DNA of 64,000 nt, taken from Candidatus Aenigmatarchaeota archaeon (GTDB lineage Archaea > Aenigmatarchaeota > Aenigmatarchaeia > Aenigmatarchaeales > JACQIB01). Position numbers and translations under genes: made by a program. This document shows positions 4,224-54,162 of the stretch, piece after piece. The stretch lies in assembly GCA_043799675.1 (NCBI GenBank), contig JAZDNN010000024.1:7418-71417 (forward strand), read 5' to 3'. Numbering within the stretch: position 1 is the first letter of the stretch; each line of letters opens with the position of its first letter. The notes under the pieces are model-generated. The model made no database searches, was not told where the DNA came from, and saw only the letters and a program-made list of their open reading frames with translations.

Positions 4224-4400
4224 TGGTGCGCCGACAGGGATTCTCATAGCACTGCAACCCGAAGGCTGCCAAAACGCCTCTTGGCGCTTCGCGCTCATTT
4301 GAACCCTGGTCATCAGCTATCCTCTTTCTGGTGCAGGTCTTTGCCGTCAGGCAAAGAAGTGCCATGGAAGGCTGAGGTCCTACCACTAGACTATCGGCGC
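4224..4400 (-). tRNA. tRNA-Gly(UCC) with two BHB introns
   Basis: 177 nt.
- Acceptor: GCGCCGA/TCGGCGC.
- D arm: GTCT-AGTGGTA-GGAC.
- Anticodon stem: TCAGC/GCTGA. The loop is CUUCCAA after removing a 46-nt intron at 37/38 (4319..4364; central helix CUUC/GAGG).
- T arm: CAGGG-TTCAAAT-CCCTG after removing a 57-nt intron at 59/60 (4241..4297; central helix UUCA/UGAG, bulges AAU and AAU).
- CCA is encoded. Confidence 0.85.
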
Positions 4401-4430
4401 AGAGAAGCTTTGCGCACGACCCTCAAAAGC

Positions 4431-5123
4431 TTATTGCTTGCGGTAGAAAAGGTACGAGCGGCTCCTGGAAACGTCGGCCCTGTATTCGAGACCTATGTCC
4501 AGTTCCTTCATCGCGGCCTCGCTGACGATGACATTCATGTTGGTCCCGTCGTTGTCGGGCGCGGTCAGGCCGGCCCACTGGCTGTTCTTTATGTTGTCTA
4601 TGACCATCAGCCCGCCGCGGTTCATGTTCTTCGCCATGTTGGCCACGGCAAGCAGCCTCTGGCCGTCGATATCAGTGTCCGACCCGTTCCCTATGTGCTC
4701 GAAAACGTTGAGGCATTCGACATAATGGAAGGGGCCCAATCCGCTCAGGTCGGCGGTGACTATGTCACCCTGCACGCAATTGGTGCGAAGGCCGCCTCTT
4801 TCCCTGGCTTCCTCAAGCGCGGCGGCATCCACGTCCAAAACGTGTACCACGAAATCCTTCTCGTATTCCGCGAACTTCCTTGCAAGCTCCACGTGGCGGA
4901 TTGCGCACGTCTTGTCCTGGGCGGACTTCTTACCGACCCCAACAAGGAGGGCGTTCATCTCTCCACCGACGTTGTGAAGGAAACCGTCCAGATAGTCGTC
5001 CACCTTCAGATGTCTGTCCGGATATGAAACGTCAGAAATCATGTCAAGCGAATGGGGCCTGTAACTTCCCCTCACTTTCTCCTGCCACTCAGGCGTCAGA
5101 AGCGCTGCCATGCTTATATTCAC
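4431..5123 (-). CDS. putative SAM-dependent methyltransferase-like protein
   Basis: 230 aa with a Rossmann-like alternation (VHVLDVD..., NVFEHIG, GGLMVIDN) reminiscent of class I methyltransferases. The glycine-rich motif I is not canonical. Confidence 0.4.
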   Translation of the reverse strand: MNISMAALLTPEWQEKVRGSYRPHSLDMISDVSYPDRHLKVDDYLDGFLHNVGGEMNALLVGVGKKSAQDKTCAIRHVELARKFAEYEKDFVVHVLDVDAAALEEARERGGLRTNCVQGDIVTADLSGLGPFHYVECLNVFEHIGNGSDTDIDGQRLLAVANMAKNMNRGGLMVIDNIKNSQWAGLTAPDNDGTNMNVIVSEAAMKELDIGLEYRADVSRSRSYLFYRKQ

Positions 5124-5148
5124 TGTGTAGTAGTATATAAAGTTATCC

Positions 5149-5586
5149 TTACTCGAGCGCTTTCCGTATCATGTCGGCGGCCTTCTCCATCTGCTCCTTG
5201 GACATCTGCTTGCGGGCGGTCCAATTGATGGCCTCCCCGTGGCCGTCATCTGCAAAGCGGGGGATGAGATTTATGTGAGCGTGCTGGACCAGCTGGCCGA
5301 CCGCCGCCCCGACCACCCATTCTGTGCCCAGGCCCTTCTGCATCGCCTTCGCCACCTTCCTGGCAAACTCGAAATAGGATCCGGCATCCGGGATGTCCCA
5401 GACCCAGCGGCAGTGGTCCTTCGGAATGACAAGCACGTGGCCGGGATTCAGCGGGGTTATGTCAAGGAACGCTTCGAAATCCCCGTCCTTGCAGATGCTG
5501 AAGGACGGTACCTTGCCTTCCACGATCCTGCAGAAGACGCAGTTGGGGTCCCTCTTGGCGCTCGGATGTGGCTTGTATTCGGGCAT
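5149..5586 (-). CDS. HIT-family (histidine triad) nucleotide hydrolase
   Basis: 145 aa, with CVFCRI, NPGHVLVIPKDH and the histidine triad HAHINLIP. Confidence 0.85.
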   Translation of the reverse strand: MPEYKPHPSAKRDPNCVFCRIVEGKVPSFSICKDGDFEAFLDITPLNPGHVLVIPKDHCRWVWDIPDAGSYFEFARKVAKAMQKGLGTEWVVGAAVGQLVQHAHINLIPRFADDGHGEAINWTARKQMSKEQMEKAADMIRKALE

Positions 5587-5590
5587 ACGC

Positions 5591-5881
5591 TCACTTCAGC
5601 AGATAGGCATAAAAATGCGTGCTATCCGGAAAGATCGAGAGAATGAACTTTTCGGCTTCTGCAACATCCTTGGACTGAGGGGAAATCTTCCGCCAATTGT
5701 TTTGGAAGAATTCGTCGCCAAGGTCAAAGGGGACGACACTGCCTATAGACTTTCGCAGAATACGGCGACCGCACTGGAAGACCGCATTTTCACCATGAAG
5801 CAGGCGGGTGCGGACCTCGATGGTCTTGCTGCCGGCCTCCAGCGTCTCGAACACCGGCTTGTACACGCGGAACAACGGCAT
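5591..5881 (-). CDS. ASCH/PUA-like domain protein
   Basis: Inner ATG at 5881, because the track ORF start at 5935 runs into tRNA-Trp. The 96 aa begin MPLFRVYKPVFETLEAGSKTIEVR, typical of small ASCH-domain proteins. Confidence 0.5.
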   Translation of the reverse strand: MPLFRVYKPVFETLEAGSKTIEVRTRLLHGENAVFQCGRRILRKSIGSVVPFDLGDEFFQNNWRKISPQSKDVAEAEKFILSIFPDSTHFYAYLLK

Positions 5882-5882
5882 A

Positions 5883-6046
5883 TGGTGGGGTCGGAGAGAT
5901 TTGAACTCCCGTCCGCTGGTATCACCATCGGGCAATCATCACGGTCATATTTGGCCGCTCATCGCTCCAGCAACATTCTGGAGCCAGCTATCCTGCCTGG
6001 CTTTGTCAGACGCAAGACCTAACTTGCGCCTTTAGACTACGACCCC
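5883..6046 (-). tRNA. tRNA-Trp(CCA) with two introns
   Basis: 164 nt.
- Acceptor: GGGGTCG/CGACCCC.
- Anticodon stem: GCTGG/CCAGC, loop CUCCAGA.
- Intron at 37/38: 57 nt (5921..5977).
- D-loop intron after nt 13: about 29 nt (about 6005..6033). The BHB is relaxed with one U-U mismatch, so the boundaries are approximate.
- T arm: GGGAG-TTCAAAT-CTCTC.
- CCA is encoded. Confidence 0.8.
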
Positions 6047-6116
6047 ATTGCTTTCAGAGGACGGGAGTATAAAAAGCGGAGTGGAGCCTTTAGTCTCCAC
6101 GCCACTTGCGAAACCC

Positions 6117-6123
6117 AAAAAAA
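6117..6123 (-). terminator. oligo-T tract downstream of tRNA-Thr
   Basis: T7 run on the minus strand, 8 nt after the encoded CCA of tRNA-Thr. Archaeal RNA polymerase terminates at oligo-T. Confidence 0.4.
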
Positions 6124-6130
6124 GGTGGAG

Positions 6131-6218
6131 TGGAGCCTCGGGAGGGAATTGCACCCTCGACCTGCTGTTTGCTTGGTTGCTTACAAGACAGCCGCTCTTC
6201 TGCCTGAGCCACCGAGGC
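6131..6218 (-). tRNA. tRNA-Thr(UGU) with a 12-nt mini-intron
   Basis: 88 nt.
- Acceptor: GCCTCGG/CCGAGGC.
- D arm: GCTC-AGGCAGAA-GAGC.
- Anticodon stem: GCTGT/ACAGC. The loop is CUUGUAA after removing a 12-nt intron (6170..6181; central helix CUUG/CAAG, bulges UAA and CAA).
- T arm: GAGGG-UGCAAUU-CCCTC, with an atypical G at position 55.
- CCA is encoded. Confidence 0.8.
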
Positions 6219-6253
6219 AAGAGATTTAATAGGCCGAGTCTTAAAAGCTTGGC

Positions 6254-6952
6254 ATGAAAGCAAGGGTCTCGGTCGTGGTTTGCGCAAGGAACGAGGAGAA
6301 GGTCATAGGAGCCTGCCTGGAAGCGCTCAAGAAACAGACGGCCTGCCCGGAGATAATCGTCATTGACGGACACTCGACGGACAGGACCAGGGAGATAGCC
6401 AAGAAGCATGCGGACAGGGTCATCCTGGACAACGGGAAGGGAATAGGGGATGCGAGGAACATCGGCTGGAAGGCGGCAACACACGGAATAGTGGCCTTTT
6501 GCGATGCGGATGCGAGACCGCCGCCGGACTGGGTGGAGAACATAGGAAAGCTGATTGACGACAACGCGGCCGTCAACGGGCCCCTCGTGCCTTACGATGC
6601 GCACAGATTCAGGACAAAGCTCACGATGAAGATATGGACGGACATTTTTTTGAGGGCGGGCTCGGCTGTCAGATACCCTATAGTGTGCGCGGCCAATGTG
6701 GCTTTCAGGAAAAGCATGCTGGAAAAGTATCCGTTCAGGCTCAACGCGCCCACCGAAGACTTCGATGTGGGCAGGAGGATGAGGCACGCGGGCAGGATAA
6801 GGTTCTTCAGCGAACTCCGTATGCCCATATCCGGCAGGAGATTCGAGAACAAGTTCTACAGGCGGACGGCCGTGATTTACCTAAGGAACTATTTCAGGGT
6901 CACGGTAGGGAAGGAAGCGAAGGACTTCGGATATTTCGAAAACAAGGGCTAG
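6254..6952 (+). CDS. family 2 glycosyltransferase
   Basis: 232 aa, with VSVVVCARNEE..., IIVIDGHSTDRT and CDADARPPPDW (DxD), which is the typical GT-A/GT2 fold signature. Confidence 0.8.
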   Translation: MKARVSVVVCARNEEKVIGACLEALKKQTACPEIIVIDGHSTDRTREIAKKHADRVILDNGKGIGDARNIGWKAATHGIVAFCDADARPPPDWVENIGKLIDDNAAVNGPLVPYDAHRFRTKLTMKIWTDIFLRAGSAVRYPIVCAANVAFRKSMLEKYPFRLNAPTEDFDVGRRMRHAGRIRFFSELRMPISGRRFENKFYRRTAVIYLRNYFRVTVGKEAKDFGYFENKG

Positions 6953-7326
6953 AACAGGAGAATTATCCATATCGTAAGGGCTATCAGGAAGCCCGAACCG
7001 AACGCTATGCCGAGCGGTATCTCGATGGGGACGCGTCCGCAGACATCATAGAGACAGGACTTCTGATACTTCCACCAGCCCTTCCCTGTCCCCCAAAGCT
7101 CCCATAAAATGTCAACGATGAAGGCGATGACACCGAATTCTACCATCAGCACAGACCTCAGTACCGCAAATGCAAAAGAGAAGAAAATCACGGCGATGAT
7201 CAGTCCCTTCAACAGGAAGGTCTGCTCGCTCTTCAGGAGCAGATATTCCGGTCTTTTCAACGCAAGCCTGTACTCGTGCCTGAGGGCGTCATACTTCCGC
7301 TTCAGCAACCGGTAATCCCGCATCAT
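6949..7326 (-). CDS. membrane protein, tandem paralog A
   Basis: Start taken at MMRDY (7326) to avoid overlap with the upstream paralog. It has an N-terminal Y..L.RKY..L...Y helix, two or three TM segments and a GRVPIEIP motif shared with 7328..7717. Confidence 0.5.
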   Translation of the reverse strand: MMRDYRLLKRKYDALRHEYRLALKRPEYLLLKSEQTFLLKGLIIAVIFFSFAFAVLRSVLMVEFGVIAFIVDILWELWGTGKGWWKYQKSCLYDVCGRVPIEIPLGIAFGSGFLIALTIWIILLF

Positions 7327-7327
7327 A

Positions 7328-7717
7328 TCACAACCCGAACATCCTGACAAGCACGAATGTGGCAAGGGAGGCCCCGGAGAAGAAATAGAAGACCGGTATC
7401 CCTATCGGCACCCTTCCGGCAATCATGTGCACTGAGTTCTCGTAGTTCCAGCGGCCGTTCTTGGTCGCGTACAACTCCATCACGAGCTCGCCGGCGGATA
7501 TCAGCGCACCCATTATGAAAATCACCGGATGATGATACCAGACGATGCCGAACACCGCGATTACCAGGAACGGGATGACCAGGGACCGCTTGCTCACAAG
7601 GGCGACCCTCTTTCTGGTAGGGAGGCGCCTTTCGTACCTTGCCCTCAGGTTCTTGTAGCGGATCTTCAGCTCCGCATATTTGCGCTCGAGCTTCCGGTAT
7701 GCGGCATCCATCTCCAT
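7328..7717 (-). CDS. membrane protein, tandem paralog B
   Basis: 129 aa with the same architecture as 6949..7326 (YRKLERKYAELKIRY..., TM segments, GRVPIGIP). Confidence 0.5.
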   Translation of the reverse strand: MEMDAAYRKLERKYAELKIRYKNLRARYERRLPTRKRVALVSKRSLVIPFLVIAVFGIVWYHHPVIFIMGALISAGELVMELYATKNGRWNYENSVHMIAGRVPIGIPVFYFFSGASLATFVLVRMFGL

Positions 7718-7807
7718 AAGAGACCTGTTTCGGCGGCGGGCTTATAAAAATAGCTGAACGGCCGGAAGGGTTATAAGAGTTCTGGCAGCGTTATTGAAGC
7801 GAAATGT

Positions 7808-9124
7808 ATGGGGTATGACCTGGTCATAGCGGGCTGCGGAACGGCCGGAGCGGCCGCGGCCCTGACTGCGGCAAAAGCGGGGCTGAAAGTCTGCGTCGTA
7901 GAACGGAAGGACAGGGCGGACATAGGAAGGAAGACCTGCGGGGACGCAATCCACGTGGACCACCTCGAATTCGCAAAAAAGCTCGGCGTGCAGTTCGGTG
8001 AGAAGGAGCTCCTTAACAAGATAACCGGAATGTACCTGATTGCGCCGAACAAGAAGGACATGATTTACGTCGAGGACGAGGGATACTGCGTAAACAGGCG
8101 GTTGTTCGGGCAGAAGCTCGTTTCCGAGGTGGAAAAGGAAGCCAAGCTGCTGAAGGTCAGCGCGATGGGACCCATCGTCGACGGGGAGAAGGTCACCGGA
8201 ATAATCACGGACAGGGGAAGGCTTGATGCGACCGTCACCATCGATGCGACCGGAGTGACGGGCATCCTGAGAAAGCAGATACCTTTCCAGACCGATTTCC
8301 CGAAGGAGATGCAGGTCAACGATTTTGCAAAGGCCTACAGGGGCATAGTGCAGATAGAAGGCGAGTTCGATACGCCGCAGGCGATCAAGATAGAATTCAA
8401 CAACGAAGTGGCTCCCGGAGGTTACATCTGGTATTTCCCGAAGGCAAAGAACGTCCTGAACATCGGAATAGGGCTGAAAGGAAATTCTTCCGCACAGGAG
8501 AACTACAACAAGTTCGTGGCAAGCCAGTTCGGAATAATAAAAGTGCTGGACGCGTCCGCATGGGCGCTGCCGATAAGGCGGCCGCTGGACGGGTTCGTGG
8601 CCAACGGTTTCATGATAATAGGGGATACCGCCTCACAGGTCAACCCGCTGGACGGGGCGGGAATAGGCTATTCGATGCGCGGCGGGGCGATGGCGGCCGA
8701 AGCCGCAACAGAAGCGGGAGAGCAACCGACACGGGAGAGGCTGTGGAAATACAACCACCGGTTCCAGACCGAAATAGGGATCAAGCACGTGCAATCGGCG
8801 ATATTCGTGGAAGCGCTTGCTTCTTTGAGCAACGAGGACCTGAACTTCGTTTTCGGTAAGAAACTGATAAACACGGACGACATTAAGCGGTCCTACACCG
8901 GCAGCATGAAGCTCAGCACTGCGCAAAAACTGAAGAAGGTGATGGCCGGGGCGGGAAGGCCGGAAGTGCTGTCCAAGCTCTACAAGGTGGTGAGCCTGGC
9001 CAACGAGGCCAAAGAACACTACAAACGGTATCCTGAAACGCCTGCAGACCTGCCGATGTGGGCCGCACTCTCCAAACGAATATTCGAAAGGTCGGCACAG
9101 GCGTTCCCGGCTTTCGGCACGTGA
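7808..9124 (+). CDS. geranylgeranyl reductase family flavoprotein (digeranylgeranylglycerophospholipid reductase-like)
   Basis: 438 aa. FAD-binding motif YDLVIAGCGTAGAAAALTAAKAGLKVCVVER, followed by K.CGDAI and GD(T)A motifs typical of archaeal GGR. Confidence 0.85.
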   Translation: MGYDLVIAGCGTAGAAAALTAAKAGLKVCVVERKDRADIGRKTCGDAIHVDHLEFAKKLGVQFGEKELLNKITGMYLIAPNKKDMIYVEDEGYCVNRRLFGQKLVSEVEKEAKLLKVSAMGPIVDGEKVTGIITDRGRLDATVTIDATGVTGILRKQIPFQTDFPKEMQVNDFAKAYRGIVQIEGEFDTPQAIKIEFNNEVAPGGYIWYFPKAKNVLNIGIGLKGNSSAQENYNKFVASQFGIIKVLDASAWALPIRRPLDGFVANGFMIIGDTASQVNPLDGAGIGYSMRGGAMAAEAATEAGEQPTRERLWKYNHRFQTEIGIKHVQSAIFVEALASLSNEDLNFVFGKKLINTDDIKRSYTGSMKLSTAQKLKKVMAGAGRPEVLSKLYKVVSLANEAKEHYKRYPETPADLPMWAALSKRIFERSAQAFPAFGT

Positions 9125-9128
9125 TGAG

Positions 9129-10193
9129 ATGGAAAACGAACGGATGTGGTCGCTGGACACCTCGACCAAGGTAAAGGGCCTGACCTGGTGGTGGTGGTGG
9201 TGGCTTTTCTTCATCGACAACCCTTCGAACCCAGCAAGGCCGAGGCAGTTGATGATACTGTGGTCGACCAAGAACTGCAAGAAAGTAAGGATTGACGATT
9301 ATGATTGGAAACGGAAGCATGATGCGCAGAAAGAAGGCAATAACCTGAAGTTCAACGGGATGGCCGCGGCCTGGTACTTCGATGGGAAGCAGATGCACGA
9401 CCCCCTGCTGCTGGACGAGCACGAGCTAAAGGCAGAATGGTCTGACAATGCCGGAAAACTACATACTGATGGGGCAACAAGGCTGTTCGAGGGCAATGAC
9501 AAGGAATACAAGGTCAAGATAGAGCACAACGGACAGAACTTCGACTTCAAGCTGTTGCCGTGGACAAATTTCCAGTCGGAGCCGCATTATTCCGGGCGGA
9601 AATATGTAGGCAAGCTGGGCTACGACATCCTGAAAGTCCGCGGAGTAAAACTTGATGGAAAGATAAACGGAGAGCATGTGACAGGCACTGCATACTTCCA
9701 GAAGGTGATGGTGAACGCCCCTGCGGTGCCGTGGTACTGGGGCATGTTCCATTTCGAGGACGGCTCCTACTTCGATTATTTCATGCCACACGTGGGACTG
9801 CAGTGCCTCAGGAGGTCTGATAAACCGAAGAGCGCGTGGGACCGCGGGCATGTGTTCATGGCACGGAATGCACAATTTTTCCATGAGCCGACCGGGAAGC
9901 ATTACACGTTCAAGAAAGCGGGAATCAAAAAACTGGTCGAGAACGGCCTGCCGATATTCCAGCTGACTGCCAAAGAGAACGGAGTCAGCATCAAGGCAAA
10001 CATGGCGGCATACAGCCGCGCATGCTGGAGGTTCGAGCAGAAAGCCTTGGGGCTCAAGACGAAGCTGTTCTACAACGAATATCCCACGGAGATGCTGGAA
10101 TTCGAGCTGAAGGATAAGGAAAGGACAATTACCAAGAAAGAACTTGGTCAGAGCAAAGGCAACACGGAGCATGCATGGGGGACGCTGGCGTAA
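9129..10193 (+). CDS. hypothetical Trp-rich protein (possible CrtC/AttH/tocopherol-cyclase-like lipid-modifying enzyme)
   Basis: 354 aa. Begins 5 nt after the GGR stop. It contains a WWWWWW run (TGG x6 at 9187-9204) and PAVPWYWGMFHFEDGSYFDYF. The family assignment is only a resemblance. Confidence 0.5.
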   Translation: MENERMWSLDTSTKVKGLTWWWWWWLFFIDNPSNPARPRQLMILWSTKNCKKVRIDDYDWKRKHDAQKEGNNLKFNGMAAAWYFDGKQMHDPLLLDEHELKAEWSDNAGKLHTDGATRLFEGNDKEYKVKIEHNGQNFDFKLLPWTNFQSEPHYSGRKYVGKLGYDILKVRGVKLDGKINGEHVTGTAYFQKVMVNAPAVPWYWGMFHFEDGSYFDYFMPHVGLQCLRRSDKPKSAWDRGHVFMARNAQFFHEPTGKHYTFKKAGIKKLVENGLPIFQLTAKENGVSIKANMAAYSRACWRFEQKALGLKTKLFYNEYPTEMLEFELKDKERTITKKELGQSKGNTEHAWGTLA

Positions 10194-10232
10194 GTCATAG
10201 AGCATAAATACTCTTCGGCAGCTAATCTTTCC

Positions 10233-10889
10233 ATGATAAAATTCATCATCAACGGCGACGACTTCTGTGCAAGCAAGGTGTTCAACGGGAAAATACTGAA
10301 TCTCCTCGAAAAGGGCTACATCAAATCGACCACCGTCATGGTCAACAGGGTCACCGAGGAACAGGAAGGGCAGATAAGGCAGCTATCCAGGCTATACAAT
10401 GAAAGAATAGTAGGTGTCGGACTTCACCTTGAGTACGACGAAAAACTACCGGTCCGCAAAGCCGTCGAATCGCAATACGGGAGATTCGTCAGAATTTTCG
10501 ACTGCCCGCCTAGCCACATCGATTTTCATAAGGGAAGGGGCATGCCGGAGGCCCAATTCATTAAGATGTTCACGGCCGGCGACAAGTTCGCAAAGGAGCA
10601 CGGCCTTCCCGCAAGGAATCGCGGGACGGCAATGACGGCAAGACACACCGCCTATCCGGCATTCATGTGCAAGGACATAACCCTGGATTTCGAGGAAGTG
10701 ACGGGATTTCTCCTTGGCGTGAAGGACGGCAGCAGCTGTGAGCTGATAACCCATCCGGGCGAATATGACCCCTTCAGCAAATCCAGCCGGAACAGGGAAA
10801 GGAAAGTGGACTATGACGTCATAGTCAGGCTGCAGGACTTCCTCAAGACGCACCCGAATTTCAGGAACATCAGCTATCTTGAGCTGTAG
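10233..10889 (+). CDS. YdjC/ChbG-like carbohydrate deacetylase family protein
   Basis: 218 aa. N-terminal INGDDFCASKVFN..I..L...G.I.STTVMVN matches the YdjC signature (NADDFG.S..vN.gI...G.vtstslMv). Confidence 0.7.
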   Translation: MIKFIINGDDFCASKVFNGKILNLLEKGYIKSTTVMVNRVTEEQEGQIRQLSRLYNERIVGVGLHLEYDEKLPVRKAVESQYGRFVRIFDCPPSHIDFHKGRGMPEAQFIKMFTAGDKFAKEHGLPARNRGTAMTARHTAYPAFMCKDITLDFEEVTGFLLGVKDGSSCELITHPGEYDPFSKSSRNRERKVDYDVIVRLQDFLKTHPNFRNISYLEL

Positions 10890-10898
10890 AGAATTAGA

Positions 10899-11151
10899 TG
10901 GTGTCGGGGATGGGGTTTCCAGTGAACTTCGTTCACAGTCAAGCGAACGGAGTTCCGCTTTGAACCCACGACCTCGCGATCTCTCACAGACTCATAGCTC
11001 CGCCGCAAGCGGCAAATTGCTTTTGCCACCTTCGGTGGTTAAGCGAGTCTCAAATCTCATAATCTTGTTATGAGTCGCGCGCTTTTGGTTATCGAATCTA
11101 CCAGGCTTTGCCGGCTGCATGACGCATCATGCGACCATGAGCCACCCCGAC
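10899..11151 (-). tRNA. tRNA(CAU) (elongator Met or Ile2) with four BHB introns
   Basis: 253 nt, with a mature length of 79 nt including CCA.
- Acceptor: GTCGGGG/CCCCGAC.
- D arm: GCTC-AAAGCCTGGTA-GAGC.
- Anticodon stem: CGCGA/TCGCG, loop CUCAUAA.
- T arm: GTGGG-TTCAAAC-CCCAT.
- Intron 1: 11110..11138, 29 nt, D loop after nt 13, central helix UGGC/GCCG.
- Intron 2: 11084..11097, 14 nt, D stem about 22/23, central helix UGGU/ACCA.
- Intron 3: 10981..11068, 88 nt, position 37/38, central helix CUCA/UGAG.
- Intron 4: 10916..10958, 43 nt, T loop 59/60, central helix UUCA/UGGA. Confidence 0.75.
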
Positions 11152-11182
11152 TGTTCTGATTGAATGCAAGAATTCAAATAGG

Positions 11183-11623
11183 TTAGCCAAAGCTCTCGAG
11201 GGGCGGCATTACCCGGGTGTTTCCGTCCCACAGGCCGAAATAGTTCCGGAAGAGCGGGTCATGAACCTTTGGCCTCAGTTTTCCATAATTGGTATGTCTG
11301 AATATCTTTTCGATTGCAGCAGCCTTCGCCGCCCTTTCTTTTATTTTATCCCTGCTGACGTCGAACCCGCAGACGAAGCATTTCAGGTAATAATCCGTCC
11401 CGATGGAATCCTTCCCGGTGAACACCTTCACCATGCCCAGCGGGAATTCCGACGACGGGATGCCCTCGTCCGGCCACCCGTTGGAAGGCTCCGCTTCCAG
11501 CTCGGCGGAAATCGCGTTCTTGACCATGTCGTAAACGATGCCGTTCTTTTCGTGCTTCTTGCCAACGGGCGTCAACGAGCCGCATCTCATGCAGGGGTCC
11601 TTGGTCAGCCAGTACATCAACAT
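11183..11623 (-). CDS. hypothetical zinc-ribbon protein (146 aa)
   Basis: Inner ATG at 11623, because the track ORF start at 11791 runs through tRNA-Lys. It has CMRCG...(N)...CFVCG cysteine pairs. No family recognised. Confidence 0.5.
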   Translation of the reverse strand: MLMYWLTKDPCMRCGSLTPVGKKHEKNGIVYDMVKNAISAELEAEPSNGWPDEGIPSSEFPLGMVKVFTGKDSIGTDYYLKCFVCGFDVSRDKIKERAAKAAAIEKIFRHTNYGKLRPKVHDPLFRNYFGLWDGNTRVMPPLESFG

Positions 11624-11653
11624 CGTTGTGTGAGAAAGGGATAAATCGACGAG

Positions 11654-11850
11654 TGGTGGGCCCAACGGGACTCTCGTAGCACTGCCGCGCTGGCGGCAAA
11701 AGCGCTTTTGGCGCTTCGCGCTCATTCGAACCCGCGACCTACCGGTTTCTCCAGTCACCGAACCAAAATGATGGTTCTCTTTTGGCTCCATTAAGAGCCG
11801 GTCGCTGATGGCTTGGTTTTAACCAATCTACCAGACTGAGCTATGAGCCC
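11654..11850 (-). tRNA. tRNA-Lys(CUU) with three BHB introns
   Basis: 197 nt.
- Acceptor: GGGCTCA/TGGGCCC.
- D arm: GCTC-AGTCTGGTA-GAGC.
- Anticodon stem: ACCGG/CCGGT, loop CUCUUAA.
- T arm: GCGGG-TTCGAAT-CCCGT.
- Intron 1: 11807..11827, 21 nt, D stem about 22/23, central helix UGGU/GCCA, inner hairpin UUGGUU/AACCAA.
- Intron 2: 11747..11791, 45 nt, position 37/38, central helix CUCU/GGAG.
- Intron 3: 11671..11724, 54 nt, position 59/60, central helix UUCG/CGAG.
- CCA is encoded. Confidence 0.85.
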
Positions 11851-13547: not shown

Positions 13548-14774
13548 ATGTACAGTATGAAAAACCCGAATTTGGTTGAGGCGGCCACCAAACCCGATAT
13601 AAGGTTCAACCCGAAGCGCTACACGTATAGTGTAGACCATCATTACTTCAAGATGTGGACGCCTCAAATGGCGTATATTTTAGGGTTCGTGTTTGCGGAC
13701 GGCGGAATAGAAAGGAACAATACGACCCTTGCCTTTGAGTTGCAGATGCGGGATAAAGAGATTTTACGAAAAATAAGAGCGGCTCTAAAATCTACCCATC
13801 CGATTTCAGCGACCAAAGCAGGCGAGTATGTACGATTACGGATCAATAGCCGTCAAATAGTTGACGATTTGAAGAAGCTTGGAGTAACGCATAATAAAAG
13901 CAAAGATTGCACATGTCCAGATATCCCTCAGCGGCTGTTGCCGCACTTCGTGAGAGGGTTCGTGGACGGTGATGGCTGGATTATTCAAAGAACCGGCAAT
14001 AACAGACATGAAATAAGCGCGGGTTTCTGCCATGGTTCTAAGGGGTTCCTTAGATCGCTGGTAAATCAGATTCGAGCGGCGCTTGATATCAAGGCATTTA
14101 ATCTACGGGCTAAGTATAAGGCAACTAGCAGCGGCAAGAGGTCGTGCACATATAGCATAGAATGGTATTCACACAACGCGTCGAAATTTTTAGATTGGAC
14201 ATACAAAGACGCAGACATCTTCTTGAAAAGAAAATACCAAAGCTATCTGAGAAGCAAACGGCTTTTTGAGGAGTTTTCTTCAAAAACGCGGCTTTGGAGA
14301 AAGGTCGAAACCAAACACAGAATGCCGCTAAGAGCCATCCTCGACGGCATGTTGGCCCGGGGTTCGAGCACCTGTCAGATTTCGGGGAATGTCGGAGTTT
14401 CATCGGCTACGATTTACAGGTGGTTAGACAAAACTGACATAAGGAAACCGGTGAAGAGGGTGTCCAAAGCGCCTGTTCTCATGAAGTGCCAGACCTGCGG
14501 TGACATTTTCAGAAAGTTTAAAGAAAACGCCAGCTATTGCTCACTTTCCTGTGCGGCGAAACATATGGCAGTTTCTAGATTGTCTGGGAACAACGTCACG
14601 TGCGCTGCATGCGGTAAACGTGTTTATAGGCCGAACTGGTGGTTTGCGATAAACAGTCGCGCCTTCTGTTCCAATAGTTGTCACGGGAAATGGCAAGAGA
14701 CCCGTTTGGCGACCAATTCGCTGCAACGCTGCAGGACCGATGGCCGCTTCCTTCCTGCTTCAGGGAGGCTATAG
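13548..14774 (+). CDS. free-standing double-motif LAGLIDADG endonuclease-like protein with C-terminal HTH and zinc ribbons
   Basis: 408 aa.
- Two LAGLIDADG motifs (YILGFVFADGG and FVRGFVDGDGW).
- An HTH (QISGNVGVSSATIYRWLDK).
- Two Cys clusters (CQTCG...CSLSC and CAACG...CSNSCHGKW). Confidence 0.7.
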   Translation: MYSMKNPNLVEAATKPDIRFNPKRYTYSVDHHYFKMWTPQMAYILGFVFADGGIERNNTTLAFELQMRDKEILRKIRAALKSTHPISATKAGEYVRLRINSRQIVDDLKKLGVTHNKSKDCTCPDIPQRLLPHFVRGFVDGDGWIIQRTGNNRHEISAGFCHGSKGFLRSLVNQIRAALDIKAFNLRAKYKATSSGKRSCTYSIEWYSHNASKFLDWTYKDADIFLKRKYQSYLRSKRLFEEFSSKTRLWRKVETKHRMPLRAILDGMLARGSSTCQISGNVGVSSATIYRWLDKTDIRKPVKRVSKAPVLMKCQTCGDIFRKFKENASYCSLSCAAKHMAVSRLSGNNVTCAACGKRVYRPNWWFAINSRAFCSNSCHGKWQETRLATNSLQRCRTDGRFLPASGRL

Positions 14775-17688: not shown

Positions 17689-18927
17689 ATGGTTTTAACC
17701 AAGTACGACCGCGGACTGCTGGAAATGATGTACCTGCTCACGAGGAAGCAGAGCCACATGAACCCTTCGGGGGTGGCAAGATACCTTTCCGAGCAGGGCA
17801 TACGGGTGACGGACAGGACAGTGAGGAGATGGTTCAACTACCTCCAGACGCACCGTTTCGACTACTTCCCGTACCCGAAATTCAAGGCGATGGGCCTCAC
17901 TCCCGTGTGGGTTTTCACGGATTTCAACGAAAAAATACTTGAAGCGATTCCACACAAGGTGGCAATAGTAAGCGGATTCGACCTCAGGAACCTCGAGAAA
18001 CGCCTGCTGGGCCTTTACTTGGTTCCGACGGAGCGGCTGAAGGATTTCAGTAAATTGTGGGCGGATGCCGTGGACGCAAAGGCGTTGAGCTTCTGCCAGC
18101 TGCTTGAAGTGGGCTCAATCAACTCCTTCTATTCGCCCTTCCACAAGCTGGTTGACCGTAACGGCATCGCCGACTTCGTGGATGACCACGAGCCGGACAA
18201 TTCCTACTTCACGGACATGCTGCGGAAGAGCACCGGCACGGAAAGCAGTGCCGGGATGAGCCCGCGCATATGCAAAAACCCGCTGATAATCCCGGTAATA
18301 TGGGAATCGTTCAGGAAGAACGCGTCGTCGCAGAAGATATGGAACTCGTTCGAAAGGAGGGCGGGTAAAGCCGCATGGGATTACATAAACAACCCGAAGG
18401 TGAGGAGAGAAAAGAAGACCGGATGCGGGATAAGGCACGTGCAGAACACCATGAGGGAGATGCAGGACAATTTCGGCGAGTTCTTCCAGCAGATGAGAGT
18501 GTCATACAATCCCCTGTACACGCACCACAACAGCATGTTCTATATGCTGCTGAAGCTGAAAAGAAGGGAAGACATCGTGCCGCTCTCGGAACTGCTCTCC
18601 AAACAGGCAATCTCAATCGTGGCGTACCCGCCCAGGGACGCGAAGAGCAGCCTGATGATGTACTACATCCTCACCAATGCCAAGGAAAGCGTCAATATCA
18701 TCAGCGACCTCATACAACCGTACATCGACAAGTCGTTCGACAACAGGATAATCACGGAGGACTTCAAGGGAACGGCGAAATACAGGAACCCGAACATGCG
18801 TCACTGGAAGGAGAACTACATGATGTCCTGCTACCACAAGCTGTTTGACCCCGTGACATGCACGTGGAAGTTCGATACCAAGGCGTACGCCAAAAAGCTG
18901 AACGCTGCCGGCATCAGACAGGGCTGA
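17689..18927 (+). CDS. hypothetical protein with N-terminal winged-helix/HTH
   Basis: Start taken at MVLTKYDRGLLEMMYLL (an alternative ATG lies at 17647). The N-terminal HTH is GVARYLSEQGIRVTDRTVRRWFNYL. The remaining 370 aa or so are unrecognised. Confidence 0.5.
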   Translation: MVLTKYDRGLLEMMYLLTRKQSHMNPSGVARYLSEQGIRVTDRTVRRWFNYLQTHRFDYFPYPKFKAMGLTPVWVFTDFNEKILEAIPHKVAIVSGFDLRNLEKRLLGLYLVPTERLKDFSKLWADAVDAKALSFCQLLEVGSINSFYSPFHKLVDRNGIADFVDDHEPDNSYFTDMLRKSTGTESSAGMSPRICKNPLIIPVIWESFRKNASSQKIWNSFERRAGKAAWDYINNPKVRREKKTGCGIRHVQNTMREMQDNFGEFFQQMRVSYNPLYTHHNSMFYMLLKLKRREDIVPLSELLSKQAISIVAYPPRDAKSSLMMYYILTNAKESVNIISDLIQPYIDKSFDNRIITEDFKGTAKYRNPNMRHWKENYMMSCYHKLFDPVTCTWKFDTKAYAKKLNAAGIRQG

Positions 18928-20335
18928 TGTTCTTCTCCAGCAGCTTGCAGATGAAGACGCGGAAATCCGGAGGAAGTTTTGATAGCATTGTGATAACCGG
19001 GGCACCGCTGGCAACGGTTGATTTCAAAAGGGCAGATGCTATGTGGCTCGGCATTCCTTTGCCCAAAAGAACATGCTCGGGCTGCGCAAAGAACGATTTC
19101 AGGTAATCCAGGGCGACCGTGTGTTCCCTCTCCGTTTCGGTGACCCAGCAGTCCTTCTCTATCCAGCACTTCTTCTCCCTGTAATGCTCCAAAAAGGCCT
19201 TTGCCTGCTTGTGCGACCAGATGGTCGGGCCGACGTGCTTCACCACCCGAGGAACCTGCCACACCTCGAGCTCGAACAGCAGGATGCAATCCTTTCCGTC
19301 CGCCCACACGTCCCTCCTGAGCACGCGGAATCCGCCGTCCGCCAGGAGACCTTCCAGGGAAGCGGAGGCCTTCCGCATCTGCGGCCACAGGGTATCATCC
19401 ACCAGATTCATCGGACGGTCGAACCTGACAAGGTACCAGCGGGTGCGCCTCCTTGCTATGGCTGCAGCCACTTCCTTCACGCTGTACGGCCTGGCGCGGG
19501 GAGGGAAGAACCACTTCTGATGGGGCAACAAAATGAAATCCCTGCACGCCCTGGCAAAAGCAAAGAAGCTGTCTGCCGAGACCGCCGCGGCAACGTTGCG
19601 GTTCGGGTCCACCGGATCTATCACCATCATGGGGGCGCGGAACTTCTCCAAAGCGGCCTGATAATCAACGGCCTTCCGCTCAAGGTCTATCAGGAGGCCT
19701 GCCTCCCATTTCTGCGCCTCGGCCGCGCAGCGGGCAAAACTGCCGTAATGAATGGCAAGCAACTCGCAAAGGTAGCCGGAGAAGCCCTGCGTCTTCACGT
19801 CGGCGCCATAAGCTCCTGCAGCTTTTGCGAAAGCCTTGATGAGCCTCGCGGTGTCGGACAGGTCCGGAGTGAAACGCTTCTTGATATAGGAAACGTGGTG
19901 CGGGGTCCTATCGACCGCGGACTTTATCCTCGACGGATCGGGAACGTCATACGCGGGCACGACGTCTATCGCATAATCCAGCTTTCCCGACTTCATCGAG
20001 CCGCGGAGGTAGGGATGCTCGGCATAGGCTATCTCCCACTTGCCGTTGAGGGTGGAAATTATCTTCTTCGCGAGGTCAAGCCCCTTCTTCTCAAACTCTT
20101 CCCGGCTGACGGCGGGATTGAAAAGCAGGAACAGGTCGAACTCGCGCTTTCCGGCAAGCCAGGTGCCCTTCTCCACCGAGCCGCACATCACGGGCACGGC
20201 CGTGTTTCCCGCTATCTTTGAGGCGACCTGCATCACGGCATTCACGGCCGATTGCATGGCTGACTGGTCGGAAGCGGAGGGGCGTATTTTCTTCAGAACG
20301 GAAGTAAGGACCTTCTCAACCGGCTGCGCTGGCAT
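18914..20335 (-). CDS. cca: class I (archaeal) CCA-adding tRNA nucleotidyltransferase
   Basis: Inner ATG at 20335 gives 473 aa. It has GSVEKGTWLAGKREFDLFLLF (the nucleotidyltransferase G[SG]...D.D motif), EHPYLRG, VDVVPAY and DRTPHHV. Confidence 0.85.
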   Translation of the reverse strand: MPAQPVEKVLTSVLKKIRPSASDQSAMQSAVNAVMQVASKIAGNTAVPVMCGSVEKGTWLAGKREFDLFLLFNPAVSREEFEKKGLDLAKKIISTLNGKWEIAYAEHPYLRGSMKSGKLDYAIDVVPAYDVPDPSRIKSAVDRTPHHVSYIKKRFTPDLSDTARLIKAFAKAAGAYGADVKTQGFSGYLCELLAIHYGSFARCAAEAQKWEAGLLIDLERKAVDYQAALEKFRAPMMVIDPVDPNRNVAAAVSADSFFAFARACRDFILLPHQKWFFPPRARPYSVKEVAAAIARRRTRWYLVRFDRPMNLVDDTLWPQMRKASASLEGLLADGGFRVLRRDVWADGKDCILLFELEVWQVPRVVKHVGPTIWSHKQAKAFLEHYREKKCWIEKDCWVTETEREHTVALDYLKSFFAQPEHVLLGKGMPSHIASALLKSTVASGAPVITMLSKLPPDFRVFICKLLEKNISPV

Positions 20336-20381
20336 ACCTTTAATTGACAGCCTATAAATAAAGGCTAAGGAAAGATTCGGT

Positions 20382-20813
20382 ATGCTGGTCTCGGAAGTGA
20401 TGAACAAGCGGGTCAGGACCTGCCGGAAGGACGACACTGTCCGCCAGGCAGCGCAGGAAATGAACAAGTGGCACATAGGGAGCCTGATCGTGGTGGACGG
20501 CCCGGGAAAGGTCATAGGAATAATAACGGAGAGGGACATCCTGACCGAAGTGGTGGCCAAAGGCCTGCGGAGCGATGACGTGGATGTCAAGGAAATAATG
20601 ACCGGAGACGTGATAGAGGTCGAGTCCAGTGCCACCCTTGAGGATGCGGCCGAGATAATGACACTTAAAAAAATAAAGAAGCTGCCGGTGGTGAGGAAGG
20701 GGCAACTGGTCGGCATCGTGACGGCGACCGACCTGATAATGTACGAGCATTCGCTGATAGAAAAAGTGTCAACCCTGCTGCAGACCGGAAAAAAGGCCGC
20801 TGTGTGCGGCTAA
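20382..20813 (+). CDS. CBS-domain pair protein
   Basis: 143 aa with two CBS motifs (VIGIITERDIL and LVGIVTATDLI). Confidence 0.8.
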   Translation: MLVSEVMNKRVRTCRKDDTVRQAAQEMNKWHIGSLIVVDGPGKVIGIITERDILTEVVAKGLRSDDVDVKEIMTGDVIEVESSATLEDAAEIMTLKKIKKLPVVRKGQLVGIVTATDLIMYEHSLIEKVSTLLQTGKKAAVCG

Positions 20814-50210: not shown

Positions 50211-51795
50211 ATGGAGCAGGAACCTGAAAAGCAGACAGGCAGTCTGCCGAAGGAAATCAAGAAAATCAGCGAGGTCGTCTGGGAACTGCCCACCAGCTAC
50301 AAGAAAGGCATGCGCGTGCCGGCAAGAATATATGCGACCAAGAAGCTGCTCGATGCGATGGACGCGGGAGTGTTCGAGCAGGTCACCAACGTCGCGACCC
50401 TGCCGGGAATCGTCAAGCATGCGTTCTGTATGCCGGATGGGCACTGGGGTATGGGTCAAGTCGCGGCTTGATTCACTCAAATATGGGTTCCCAATCGGCG
50501 GCGTGGCTGCATTCGACCCGAAGGTCGGCGTGATCAGCCCGGGCGGCATCGGGTTCGACATCAACTGCGGCATGAGGTTCGTCACTACCAACCTTACTGT
50601 CAAGGACGTCAAACCCAAGCTGAAAGAACTGGTGGATATCCTGTTCAGGACGGTTCCCGCGGGCGTGGGCGGGGAAGGGTTTGTAAAATTAAGCCGCAGC
50701 CAATTCGACGAAATAATGGTCCAAGGGGCCAATTGGGTCATCGAGCACGGCTACGGTTGGAAAGAGGACACGGAAAGAATAGAGGAGTACGGCTGCATCA
50801 AAGGTGCTGATCCGTCAAAGGTCAGCGACAAGGCAAGGACCAGAGGCATCACGCAGATGGGGACGCTCGGCTCAGGGAACCATTACCTGGAAATCCAGAC
50901 TGCCGAGAAAATTTTCCTTCCCGAAGTCGCAGAGGCATTCGGCGTGAACGAACAGGGGCAGATAGGGGTGATGGTGCACTGCGGCTCGAGGGGGTTCGGC
51001 CACCAAATCGGAACGGATTATCTCAGGATATTCGACATGGCAATGAAGAAGTACAACATCACGGTGCCTGACAGGGAGCTTGCCTGTGCGCCTTTTGCGA
51101 GCCAGGAAGGACAGGATTATTATCACGCGATGGCCTGCGCGGCAAACATGGCTTTTGCCAACAGGCAGGTGATTTTGCACAGGATACGCGAGGCTTTTGC
51201 AAAGGTGTTCAGGAAATCCCCCGAAGACATGGAAATGCACCTGGTGTACGATGTCGCGCACAACGTGGCCAAGGTGGAGAAACACCTGGTCGACGGTCAT
51301 GAAAAGGAACTGGTGATGCACCGGAAGGGGAGCACGCGCTGCTTCGGTCCGGGTAGGCCGGAGATTCCTGAAGCTTACCGCAAGGTCGGCCAGCCGGTGA
51401 TTGTGGGCGGCAGCATGGAAACGGGCAGCTTTTTGTGCGTGGGCACGGACAAGGCTCTGACAGAAACATGGGGAAGCACCATGCACGGCGCGGGCAGAAC
51501 CATGAGCAGGACTTCAGCGAGGAACCAGGGCTCGGGCTTGGCGTTGCAGAAGAAGATGGCCAAGGAAGGGATACTGGTGGAAGCCACGAGCATGAGCGGG
51601 CTTGCAGAGGAAGCGGGCTTTGCCTACAAGGACCTGAACGAAGTGGTCGAGACCATGGAAATCGCGGGCGTGAGCAGGAAGGTCGTTCTGCTGAGGCCTT
51701 TGGGTAATATTAAAGGCACCGCCCGGGCCTCATACAGCCTTTTAGCTTTCCCCATACTTGTCATGGTCTTGGCCTTGATTTCGTCCCTTATCTGA
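50211..51795 (+). CDS. rtcB: RNA-splicing ligase RtcB, coding sequence interrupted by a 31-nt BHB intron (exon 1 50211..50450, exon 2 50482..51795)
   Basis: - Exon 1 (80 aa) ends ...LPGIVKHAFCMPDGHWG.
- Exon 2, in another frame, starts YGFPIGGVAAFD...GGIGFDINCGMR, and HCGSRGFGHQ and further motifs follow.
- Joining at 50450/50482 recreates the universal MPD.H.GYGF.IGG motif.
- Unspliced, the first frame stops at 50469-50471 after 86 aa.
- The C-terminus carries a hydrophobic extension of about 25 aa after the usual ...IKG end. Confidence 0.85.
50451..50481 (+). other. predicted bulge-helix-bulge (BHB) intron within the rtcB mRNA
   Basis: - Central helix: UGGG (50445-48) / CUCA (50476-79).
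- Bulges: GUA (50449-51) and AAU (50480-82), each 3 nt.
- Inner helix: 9 bp, UGGGUCAAG/CUUGAUUCA, with loop UCGCGG.
- Cleavage after the 2nd bulge nucleotide on each side removes exactly the 31 nt needed to restore the frame. Confidence 0.75.
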
Positions 51796-52859
51796 ACGAT
51801 AAGCGGTTCGACCTGTTTCCACCTCGTGATGTTCTTGCCGATTATTTCGAGAATCAATTCCTTTTTGGCCGTTTTCTCGGGATGCCTCAACGGCAGCAAT
51901 TCGAGCATCCGACGGACATCGGCCTTCCTGAAGATTTCTAAGGCGAAATAATCCTTGCTGTATCTTATACTGACCCCATGAGTGTCTCTGCCGTCCCCGC
52001 GCCTGAAAATCCTGTATAGAATTGGATTAAAGCCCTGTTCCCTTAGTTGCCGTTTTATCCTACCAAGCAAGGTTTTATTTTCGGTGCCTATCCGCATACA
52101 ACACTGCAAATTTTCCCTGATTTTCTTGACCAGAAGCGACCCTTCCGCATCGAAGTAGCCGGCCAGGAACGACAGGAAAACATTCCGTTCGGATTCGACC
52201 AACTCTGAAATCAATCGTTTCCTGTTTTCCAGCAAGAGGAAGTCGAAGCTGTTGTCGAGGTCTGCGGATGTCGTCCACATGTAATTTCCAAAAGTTCTGT
52301 TCTTCGCAGGATATGTCCTTACCTTCGCATATCCTTTGAACAGGCTCTCGAAGACATCCAGGAATCCTTCATGAGTCGTGTTGGTTATGGCCCGAATGGT
52401 ATGCTTCGATCTTCTGAAGGCTGTCACATCACCCTCCACGAAACCAACCATGTAAGCCTTTTCTTCATCCTTTCCATCAAAACTTTGCCGTTCATGTTTC
52501 CTGTTTGTCAGCAGGATAGCCTCATCGTTTCCACGCACCCGAAAGCCGTTTTCTTCCAGCACCTTATGCAACGTGCCTTTGGAAGAACCAAATTTCTTGG
52601 CCAGCTTTTTCAACGATATTTTCTCCGTGTCATAAAGTCTCAGAATTTCCGTCACAGGCAGGTGTTTCCTGTGAGACAACGAATGTGCCTGACTGAGATT
52701 CCTTATCGGTATGTCAAGTTTGATGAACCGTTTTCTTACGGCCGACCACGATATATCGTCTCCGAGCTTAACACTCAATATCGCCGCCACTTCTTTGAAC
52801 GTCTTACCGGACGAATAGAGACTCTCGGCTTCCTTCAGGAGTTCGCTGTTCAGCTTCAT
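51624..52859 (-). CDS. LAGLIDADG endonuclease-like protein with N-terminal HTH domains
   Basis: 411 aa. There are two N-terminal HTH-like segments (GKTFKEVAAIL and ISLKKLAKKFGSSKGTLHKVL), then LAGLIDADG motifs (YMVGFVEGDVT and FLSFLAGYFDAEGS). It lies directly downstream of the DGR RT. Its last 172 nt overlap the 3' end of rtcB on the opposite strand. Confidence 0.65.
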   Translation of the reverse strand: MKLNSELLKEAESLYSSGKTFKEVAAILSVKLGDDISWSAVRKRFIKLDIPIRNLSQAHSLSHRKHLPVTEILRLYDTEKISLKKLAKKFGSSKGTLHKVLEENGFRVRGNDEAILLTNRKHERQSFDGKDEEKAYMVGFVEGDVTAFRRSKHTIRAITNTTHEGFLDVFESLFKGYAKVRTYPAKNRTFGNYMWTTSADLDNSFDFLLLENRKRLISELVESERNVFLSFLAGYFDAEGSLLVKKIRENLQCCMRIGTENKTLLGRIKRQLREQGFNPILYRIFRRGDGRDTHGVSIRYSKDYFALEIFRKADVRRMLELLPLRHPEKTAKKELILEIIGKNITRWKQVEPLIVQIRDEIKAKTMTSMGKAKRLYEARAVPLILPKGLSRTTFLLTPAISMVSTTSFRSL

Positions 52860-53991: not shown

Positions 53992-54040
53992 AAATATCCC
54001 CTATCGGCGGCCCGTGCTATTGGCGCAGACCCCGTTGTCA

Positions 54041-54073
54041 TTCAGGCTTCCCGCCAAAAGGCAATGAGGAAGT
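54041..54073 (-). other. TR intron 3 (33 nt, predicted BHB)
   Basis: Sense-strand layout: CAGG | AAA | CUUCC-UCAUU-GCC-UUUU-GGC-G-GGAAG | CCUG | AAU. That is a perfect 4-bp central helix CAGG/CCUG, 3-nt bulges and a 5-bp inner helix. Confidence 0.75.
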
Positions 54074-54098
54074 TTCCTGTTCGAGGGCCTGTTCGCAT

Positions 54099-54129
54099 TT
54101 ATGCCGGCGGAACGTTTCCTTCCAACCGT
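54099..54129 (-). other. TR intron 2 (31 nt, predicted BHB)
   Basis: Sense-strand layout: AUGC | GAA | CGGU...GCCG | GCAU | AAA. That is a perfect 4-bp central helix AUGC/GCAU, 3-nt bulges, and an inner helix CGGU/GCCG enclosing a GGAA-ACG-UUCC hairpin. Confidence 0.7.
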
Positions 54130-54145
54130 TCGCATTGAAGCACCC

Positions 54146-54162
54146 TTGACGGCCCGAAGGCT
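54146..54162 (-). other. TR intron 1 (17 nt, predicted BHB)
   Basis: Sense-strand layout: GACG | AGA | GCC-UUCG-GGC | CGUC | AAG. That is a 4-bp central helix GACG/CGUC, 3-nt bulges, and an inner GCC/GGC helix with a UUCG loop. Confidence 0.7.

Follow-up and report, generated by a model that had tools for sequence, protein, structure and literature searches.

The T-loop introns at position 59/60 of two tRNA genes, tRNA-Gly(UCC) and tRNA-Lys(CUU), are very probably paralogous copies within a single family of homologous bulge-helix-bulge (BHB) introns that has spread recently. The family comprises at least 11 occurrences with ten distinct sequences, falls into two subtypes (A and B), and lies at position 59/60 in every case, in at least six tRNA species of related metagenomic archaea (Gly(UCC), Lys(CUU), Lys(UUU), Pro(CGG), Leu(GAG), and a class II Ser(CGA)/Leu(CAA)).

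The window, that is, the whole stretch of 64,000 nucleotides that was analysed, carries both genes on the minus strand. Among named sequences, its ribosomal proteins S19e and S8e are closest to homologs from Candidatus Aenigmatarchaeota/Aenigmarchaeota MAGs (54-72% identity), and they reach 84-99% identity with metagenomic proteins; judged from these two proteins, the host lineage is a DPANN archaeon and not a member of the Thermoproteales. Loci of related metagenomic archaea are designated below by L numbers. An earlier examination of the window by eye (the sequence-only reading) had placed the two T-loop introns at 4241-4297 and 11671-11724 on position 59/60, and both placements proved exact. 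The features that the comparison draws on are as follows:

4224-4400, minus strand: tRNA-Gly(UCC) gene with two introns; exons 4400-4365, 4318-4298, and 4240-4224; CCA encoded.
4241-4297, minus strand: 59/60 intron of tRNA-Gly, 57 nt, subtype B; covariance-model score 102 bits.
4319-4364, minus strand: 37/38 intron of tRNA-Gly, 46 nt, canonical, unrelated to the family; reported by ARAGORN as a 46-nt intron at position 37.
10916-10958, minus strand: 59/60 intron of tRNA-Met(CAU), 43 nt, an unrelated comparator that has only the T-loop-pairing tail (UGGAAA) in common with the family.
11654-11850, minus strand: tRNA-Lys(CUU) gene with three introns; exons 11850-11827, 11805-11792, 11746-11725, and 11670-11654, compared with the one-intron ortholog at L048.
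11671-11724, minus strand: 59/60 intron of tRNA-Lys, 54 nt, subtype A; covariance-model score 65 bits; identical to the L073 intron.
11747-11791, minus strand: 37/38 intron of tRNA-Lys, 45 nt, outside the family and of older origin; L048, L174, and L176 have it too.
11806-11826, minus strand: 21-nt intron in the D-arm of tRNA-Lys, unrelated to the family; the orthologs at L048 and L174 lack it.
50332-51795, plus strand: gene for the tRNA-splicing ligase RtcB (Pfam RtcB, E = 3.6e-157).

Removal of the 57-nt and 46-nt introns yielded a canonical 74-nt tRNA-Gly(tcc) in ARAGORN, and the tRNA-Gly orthologs at L045 and L048 have no introns. For tRNA-Lys, ARAGORN called Lys(ctt) once the D-arm and T-loop inserts were removed, with a placement of the 37/38 intron that differed from our manual parse; this A-rich junction is ambiguous by one A. 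Splicing out the 59/60 insert also restored a tRNA in the Pro and Ser/Leu hosts (ARAGORN after manual splicing). The junction of the 59/60 introns is itself ambiguous by one U (59/60 or 60/61), with BHB geometry favouring 59/60. The 37/38 intron of the window tRNA-Gly shows no similarity to the 59/60 family and differs from the 37/38 introns of L042 and L122, and in the Lys D-arm intron 4 of 21 positions, including the two of a compensatory pair, distinguish the window copy from that of L073.

Alignment of the Gly and Lys 59/60 introns gave 45 identical positions out of 57, including the first 17 nt (UGAGCGCGAAGCGCCAA) and the stretch GCAGUGCUA.GAGA near the 3' end, which bore out the shared sequence noticed earlier; the accompanying observation that the exons differ is true outside the universal T-arm. 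The global alignment score was 31, against -3.1 ± 4.1 for 5,000 dinucleotide-preserving shuffles, and the local score was 32, against 9.8 ± 1.8 (n = 5,000); no shuffle reached the observed score in either case, so that the similarity exceeds what is expected for short GC-rich hairpins. Other introns in both genes and the unrelated 59/60 introns of window tRNA-Met, L118 tRNA-Tyr, and L118 tRNA-Asp scored only 4-8, which argues that the similarity is not a generic likeness among GC-rich hairpins.

These scores bear directly on convergence, the idea that the introns originated independently and look alike only because the same T-loop demands a GC-rich BHB. The last 6-8 nt of unrelated 59/60 introns (UGGAAA in window tRNA-Met, GGUGAGAA in L118 tRNA-Tyr) do resemble the family tail, as convergence would have it. 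Beyond the tail, however, the unrelated introns are dissimilar, they miss the family covariance model at E ≤ 10 with the sole exception of the Asp intron at 17 bits, and the shuffles refute the idea for the Gly/Lys pair; we regard convergence as having a negligible probability.

Besides the Gly and Lys copies, profile HMM and covariance-model searches found no third family copy in the window. Further members came from three sources: a metagenome scan with an exact 14+6 nt pattern, a scan of contigs for T-loop inserts, and syntenic loci reached through S19e and S8e. Hosts were assigned after manual splicing, since ARAGORN isotypes were wrong on multi-intron precursors, and host range and copy number are lower bounds. 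The members are listed here by host, locus, and subtype:

tRNA-Gly(UCC), window: subtype B.
tRNA-Gly(UCC), L122: subtype B.
tRNA-Gly(UCC), L042: subtype A.
tRNA-Lys(CUU), window: subtype A.
tRNA-Lys(CUU), L073: subtype A, identical to the window copy.
tRNA-Lys(CUU), L174: subtype A.
tRNA-Lys(CUU), L176: B-like.
tRNA-Lys(UUU), L118: subtype A.
tRNA-Leu(GAG), L083: subtype B.
tRNA-Pro(CGG), L084: subtype A, diverged.
tRNA-Ser(CGA) or tRNA-Leu(CAA), class II, L084: subtype B; the host stays Ser(CGA) or Leu(CAA) because the junction of its anticodon-loop intron is ambiguous.

Identity between subtypes A and B is 79% (the 45 of 57 positions above), and within a subtype it is at least 90% over the core. 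Intron positions 2-15 and AGUGCU look invariant partly through ascertainment, since most metagenomic members were found with the exact 14+6 nt pattern; these positions are fixed by the pattern in L073, L083, the class II host on L084, L118, and L122. Members found without it (L084 Pro, L174, and L176) vary there, with C2, A8, G10, and CCGCU in place of GUGCU. The family is nevertheless sharply delimited from other sequence. An nhmmer profile gave 10 matches at E ≤ 2.4e-14, with the next best at 0.0026 (1.1 Mb of DNA), and a covariance model built from subtype B members gave eleven matches of 57-104 bits, with the next at 17 bits (171 kb of related archaeal DNA).

A search for the element outside tRNA genes, also proposed with the original observation, returned no copy outside tRNA T-loops in the 1.1 Mb profile search or in the 171-kb covariance-model search, and three scans of 2.9 million viral contigs returned no family member. 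Among 185,579 species-representative genomes, the pattern GAGCGCGAAGCGCC-N15-45-GTGCTA matched 41 times; all 41 were bacterial chance matches, none lay in a tRNA, and their number is about that expected for 20 specified bases, so that neither the source genome nor a close relative is included in that set. An exact-match look-up of one window protein likewise returned no record.

This confinement to T-loops weighs against the reading in which the intron is a DNA transposon (MITE-like), or an element carried by an integrase, that targets tRNA T-arms by chance. Transfer RNA genes often serve as integration sites, a mobile element has been put forward as the source of intron gain in Caldiarchaeum (PMC3293823), and the window does contain ORFs that combine LAGLIDADG and helix-turn-helix domains. 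Against this, the introns have no terminal inverted repeats beyond the 5-bp helix P1 described below and no target-site duplication, and neither in the window nor in the loci of relatives does a recombinase, integrase, or transposase adjoin any copy. A Pfam scan of 41 window ORFs likewise found no EndA, integrase, or transposase. Taken with the lack of copies off T-loops and in viral contigs, this makes such an element very unlikely as the source of the family.

The common site has a structural counterpart elsewhere in the tRNA. The T-loop has 7 nt and is closed by a 5-bp stem; site 59/60 separates its sixth and seventh nucleotides and is the T-arm counterpart of the canonical 37/38 site. Once the T-arm was included in constrained folds, every family member could form a BHB, in which a 4-bp helix, formed by U54-U55-C56-R57 with intron positions -6 to -3 (YGAG), stacks on the T-stem (49-53/61-65). 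Pair 57:-6 is A-U, G-U, or G-C, following the host T-loop. The predicted bulges are A58 A59|U+1 and N-2 N-1|U60, each presumably cut after its second base. A strict BHB is found in L042 Gly and L084 Ser, and the other members are relaxed by an additional unpaired G2/A-7; in most members the 5' bulge is thus 4 nt long (A58 A59 U1 G2) opposite an unpaired A, which makes the motif relaxed and not strict. Constraining the fold to the BHB costs about 2.5-5 kcal/mol relative to the minimum free energy in all members, and the minimum-energy fold from ViennaRNA favours a shifted UUC:GAA register over the BHB pairing. A K-turn reading of the 5' bulge together with G2.A-7 was considered and dropped, the second tandem pair being A-U and not A.G.

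Between the splice-site ends, the predicted intron core is a three-way junction of P1 (5 bp, AGCGC/GUGCU), P2 (7-8 bp, GAAGCGC(C) with (G)GCGUUUU), and P3 (6 bp and a tetraloop). In the two window introns the predicted helices are positioned as follows, from the folds and the pair table, with the pairing of the tail to the T-loop:

4295-4291 with 4252-4248, minus strand: P1 of the Gly 59/60 intron.
4290-4283 with 4278-4271, minus strand: P2 of the Gly 59/60 intron.
4269-4264 with 4259-4254, minus strand: P3 of the Gly 59/60 intron, with a UUCG loop.
4246-4243, minus strand: tail UGAG of the Gly 59/60 intron, which pairs with T-loop 54-57 (4303-4300).
11722-11718 with 11682-11678, minus strand: P1 of the Lys 59/60 intron.
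11717-11711 with 11705-11699, minus strand: P2 of the Lys 59/60 intron.
11698-11693 with 11688-11683, minus strand: P3 of the Lys 59/60 intron.
11676-11673, minus strand: tail CGAG of the Lys 59/60 intron, which pairs with T-loop 54-57 (11730-11727).

A covariance analysis had been suggested for a conserved GCGC-GAA-GCGC hairpin. Substitutions keep the pairing of the three-way junction. The hairpin, whose bases are the 5' strands of P1 and P2, competes with these two helices, has a predicted pair probability of at most 0.03, and was rejected. In the model-fitted alignment, 97.6% of pair cells were standard pairs, compared with 40-51% when partners were slid by one to three columns, a figure that leans towards structure since the alignment was fitted to the model. 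Between subtypes A and B, five of the six P3 pairs differ, all of them compensatory, in the structural table made by hand, and only two such pairs appear in the model-fitted alignment, which sets subtype A P3 in another register than the table. We used the hand table and the model-fitted alignment because a MAFFT alignment of A and B puts P3 out of register. Point changes within P2 and P3 preserve pairing, and the positions that vary freely are those of the two hairpin loops, the tail, and G2:A-7. The family introns (54-57 nt) contain no ORF and no group I or II ribozyme core, Rfam at E ≤ 10 had no match at the Gly or Lys 59/60 intron, and neither a C box (RUGAUGA) nor a D box (CUGA) is present in the family consensus; the tail of L042 alone reads CUGAUGU, by chance.

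Comparison with relatives indicates when the introns were acquired. At L045, L048, and L178, where S19e and S8e are 70-79% identical to those of the window, the syntenic Gly, Lys, Met, and Trp genes have no T-loop intron. Because they are absent at orthologous genes of these distant relatives, the 59/60 introns were gained recently, inside one Aenigmarchaeota-like subclade. Within the subclade the subtype changes at orthologous sites. The Gly intron is subtype B in the window and L122 and subtype A in L042, where the T-stem also carries a compensatory change; the Lys(CUU) intron is subtype A in the window, L073, and L174, with a B-like core in L176. The L174 and L176 copies share C2 and an AUGRAAR tail around differing cores, a weak hint of mosaic structure. 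These switches imply either exchange between paralogous copies or repeated insertion. The sequence-only reading had taken the Gly and Lys pair as a sign that the introns share one origin and moved from one tRNA gene to another through transposition or gene-conversion-like events, and the range of at least six host tRNA species, the absence in distant relatives, and the subtype switches all support that view.

Sequence conservation could alternatively mean that the core is a selected RNA, such as a stable circular RNA or a protein-binding scaffold, kept for that function. Over its first 47 nt, the L042 Gly intron shows no difference from the Lys intron of the window, although the flanking DNA and neighbouring genes are only 71-84% identical. 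L073 is 93% identical to the window overall; here the T-loop intron of the Lys gene has no difference in 54 nt, against 7 in 65 for the other two Lys introns. The substitutions that do occur preserve base pairs, and functional tRNA introns are known, for example the box C/D intron of tRNA-Trp (PMC3326292). Against this, conservation between the window and L174 also reaches about 95% in the Lys 37/38 intron, a figure that weakens the idea of a uniquely conserved T-loop intron; with the 37/38 intron so similarly conserved, splicing constraint on an essential tRNA together with homogenisation between copies suffices. Exchange between copies can also keep sequences alike, part of the invariance comes from the search pattern, distant relatives live without the intron, and there is no Rfam match, no C/D box, and no free-standing copy. 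Selection for a function of the core is therefore an improbable account, and the separate function once suggested for the hairpin is not needed beyond presentation of the splice sites. No function of the excised intron is required to explain the family.

For the spread of paralogous copies we propose the following. The pre-tRNA would be cut by the splicing endonuclease at the BHB, the exons joined by RtcB, and the intron probably circularised, with the three-way-junction core holding both intron ends together. RtcB is the enzyme expected to ligate the exons and to circularise an excised intron. The T-loop bases paired by the tail are nearly invariant across tRNAs, and because the tail pairs with these bases the cassette could be spliced from almost any T-loop. 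Such portability would account for unrelated host tRNAs occupied at exactly one position. New copies would be made and exchanged at the DNA level by short-homology gene conversion, with conserved T-arm DNA and the intron ends supplying the homology, and selection would retain only splice-competent insertions. We give gene conversion at the DNA level roughly even chances of being the route of spread. A first insertion into an intronless gene would have little homology to use, no more than about 8-10 nt 5' of the site and 3-5 nt 3' of it, and with homology this short gene conversion is documented only indirectly, via the subtype switches.

The same tail invites an RNA-level route. In retro-homing, the YGAGAR tail of an excised intron would pair with the T-loop of an intronless tRNA and form a BHB-like motif in trans; the endonuclease would cut at 59/60, RtcB would ligate the intron in, and reverse transcription followed by recombination of the cDNA would carry it into the gene. 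Such a route would explain directly why the site is always 59/60, why the junctions are precise, and why the intron is portable, and the window encodes both RtcB and a reverse transcriptase, the latter as an RVT_1 ORF with an Rfam RT-16 RNA upstream of it. However, we know of no demonstration of reverse BHB splicing in any archaeon. Nothing links the window reverse transcriptase to tRNAs, and a reverse transcriptase with an upstream structured RNA resembles a retron or defence-type unit. The subtype switches represent recombination between copies and require no RNA step, and a review supposes a DNA-level process while calling the transposition mechanism unknown (PMC4090602). We consider retro-homing unlikely, if somewhat less so than a selected core. 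A broader proposal, in which the tail guides endonuclease- and RtcB-mediated reverse splicing of a mobile cassette into any tRNA, fixed through the genome's own reverse transcriptase, and/or the core is a selected stable circular RNA, seems to us about as doubtful as a selected core; if true, it would make this the first BHB intron with a demonstrable module for mobility or function.

Gene conversion or not, the spread itself is a phenomenon already known. Fujishima and colleagues reportedly delimited transposed groups by an intron similarity above about 70%. The present family shows 79% identity between subtypes A and B, distinct host tRNA genes, and intronless outgroup orthologs, and so has the features of a transposed group. 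As cited in later papers (PMC4033280, PMC4090602, PMC10714607), similar introns in tRNA genes for different isoacceptors of the Thermoproteales were attributed to large-scale transposition and late gain (Fujishima et al. 2010), the requirement for a BHB motif restricting where an intron could insert. The present family resembles those groups, as they are cited, in consisting of short, highly similar BHB introns shared across isoacceptors. It is unlike them in its host, here an Aenigmarchaeota-like DPANN lineage from sediment-type metagenomes and not a hyperthermophilic crenarchaeon, and, going by the same citations, in its restriction to the single site 59/60, its tail that pairs with universal T-loop bases, its three-way-junction core of 54-57 nt, and its two subtypes that swap at orthologous sites. 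What is specific here is therefore the single site, the guide tail for the universal T-loop, and the A/B swapping.

Other comparisons place the family among known tRNA introns. Like canonical 37/38 BHB introns, it has the hBHBh' arrangement, a 5-bp arm stem, a 4-bp central helix from loop positions 1-4, 3-nt bulges, and a cut between positions 6 and 7; unlike them, it sits in the T-arm, and its guide pairing is to the invariant T-loop and not to tRNA-specific bases of the anticodon loop. With the tRNA-Trp box C/D intron of Haloferax and Sulfolobus (PMC3326292) it would share being an excised, probably circular, and structured tRNA intron, but it has no C/D boxes or identifiable guide function. 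Caldiarchaeum subterraneum, where intron gain and tRNA splitting through a mobile element were described (PMC3293823), offers a similarly recent, population-level gain of a tRNA intron, but the present family has no recombinase-bearing insertion sequence. Position 59/60 is listed among known noncanonical intron positions (PMC4090602), and disrupted tRNA genes in DPANN are mentioned in general terms (PMC5829648); our literature search found no paper on tRNA intron families of Aenigmarchaeota. Burst-like spread of homologous BHB introns is thus not peculiar to the Thermoproteales and occurs in a DPANN lineage as well. Pairing to the universal T-loop offers a simple structural reason why an intron may be portable between tRNAs, and the relatives in public metagenomes with the intron, without it, and with swapped subtypes form a natural series for studying the mechanism of intron gain.

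The intron load of the window extends beyond this family. Its five tRNA genes (Gly, Trp, Thr, Met, and Lys; 4224-11850, minus strand) contain 12 introns, or 2.4 per gene; the Thermoproteales average in the literature is 0.84 per gene. On the raw window, ARAGORN and Rfam detected one of the five, tRNA-Thr, and since standard tRNA finders miss these genes, the tRNA complements of such MAGs will be underestimated. The most heavily interrupted gene and its inserts are as follows:

10899-11151, minus strand: tRNA-Met(CAU) gene; removal of four inserts gives a canonical 77-nt tRNA-Met.
11137-11107 (31 nt), 11096-11083 (14 nt), 11067-10980 (88 nt), and 10958-10916 (43 nt), minus strand: inserts of the tRNA-Met gene.

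The 5' half of the spliced tRNA-Met equals that of the one-intron L048 homolog. Archaeal tRNA genes have up to three introns according to the tRNAscan-SE 2.0 paper (PMC8450103), and the four inserts of tRNA-Met, the first three of which are candidate introns, may exceed this described maximum. The 59/60 intron of tRNA-Met turns over quickly, measuring 43 nt in the window (10916-10958, minus strand), 87 nt in L174 (4190-4441), and 14 nt (UCAGCCGGUGAAAA) in L176 (969-1121), with the T-loop-pairing tail alone in common.

A second shared intron family was seen at 37/38, where the introns of L042 Gly(UCC) (379-418) and L084 Pro(CGG) (about 1262-1301) are identical at about 31 of 40 positions, with the sequence CCUUCUU.G.AAGAAGGUC.AUCAAGAA.CG; at the same site of the orthologous Gly genes, the window and L122 carry introns of no relation to this family. 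The window tRNA-Trp(CCA) gene (5886-6046, minus strand), for which Rfam gave no more than a weak "tmRNA" match, is interrupted by one intron in the D-loop and by a long one, with a GUGAUGA (C-box-like) motif, in the anticodon loop. The long intron is in line with what is expected of the box C/D guide RNA intron of archaeal tRNA-Trp, and it is separate from the 59/60 family.

Several protein-coding features of the window were also recorded. The RT-16 RNA mentioned above (54197-54373, minus strand; 57.2 bits, gathering score 50) lies directly upstream of the reverse transcriptase ORF (52915-53991; RVT_1, E = 3e-16), and the unit that they form (52915-54373, minus strand), retron-like or defence-like in character, lies at a distance of 1.1 kb from the gene for RtcB. 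LAGLIDADG_3 and helix-turn-helix domains occur together in two free-standing ORFs of about 410 aa (13548-14774, plus strand, and 51624-52859, minus strand), which are possibly derivatives of homing endonucleases; a LAGLIDADG_3 ORF also adjoins the tRNA-Met gene in L045. A gene for the CCA-adding enzyme is present at 18914-20716 (minus strand), although the 3' CCA is encoded in all five window tRNA genes.
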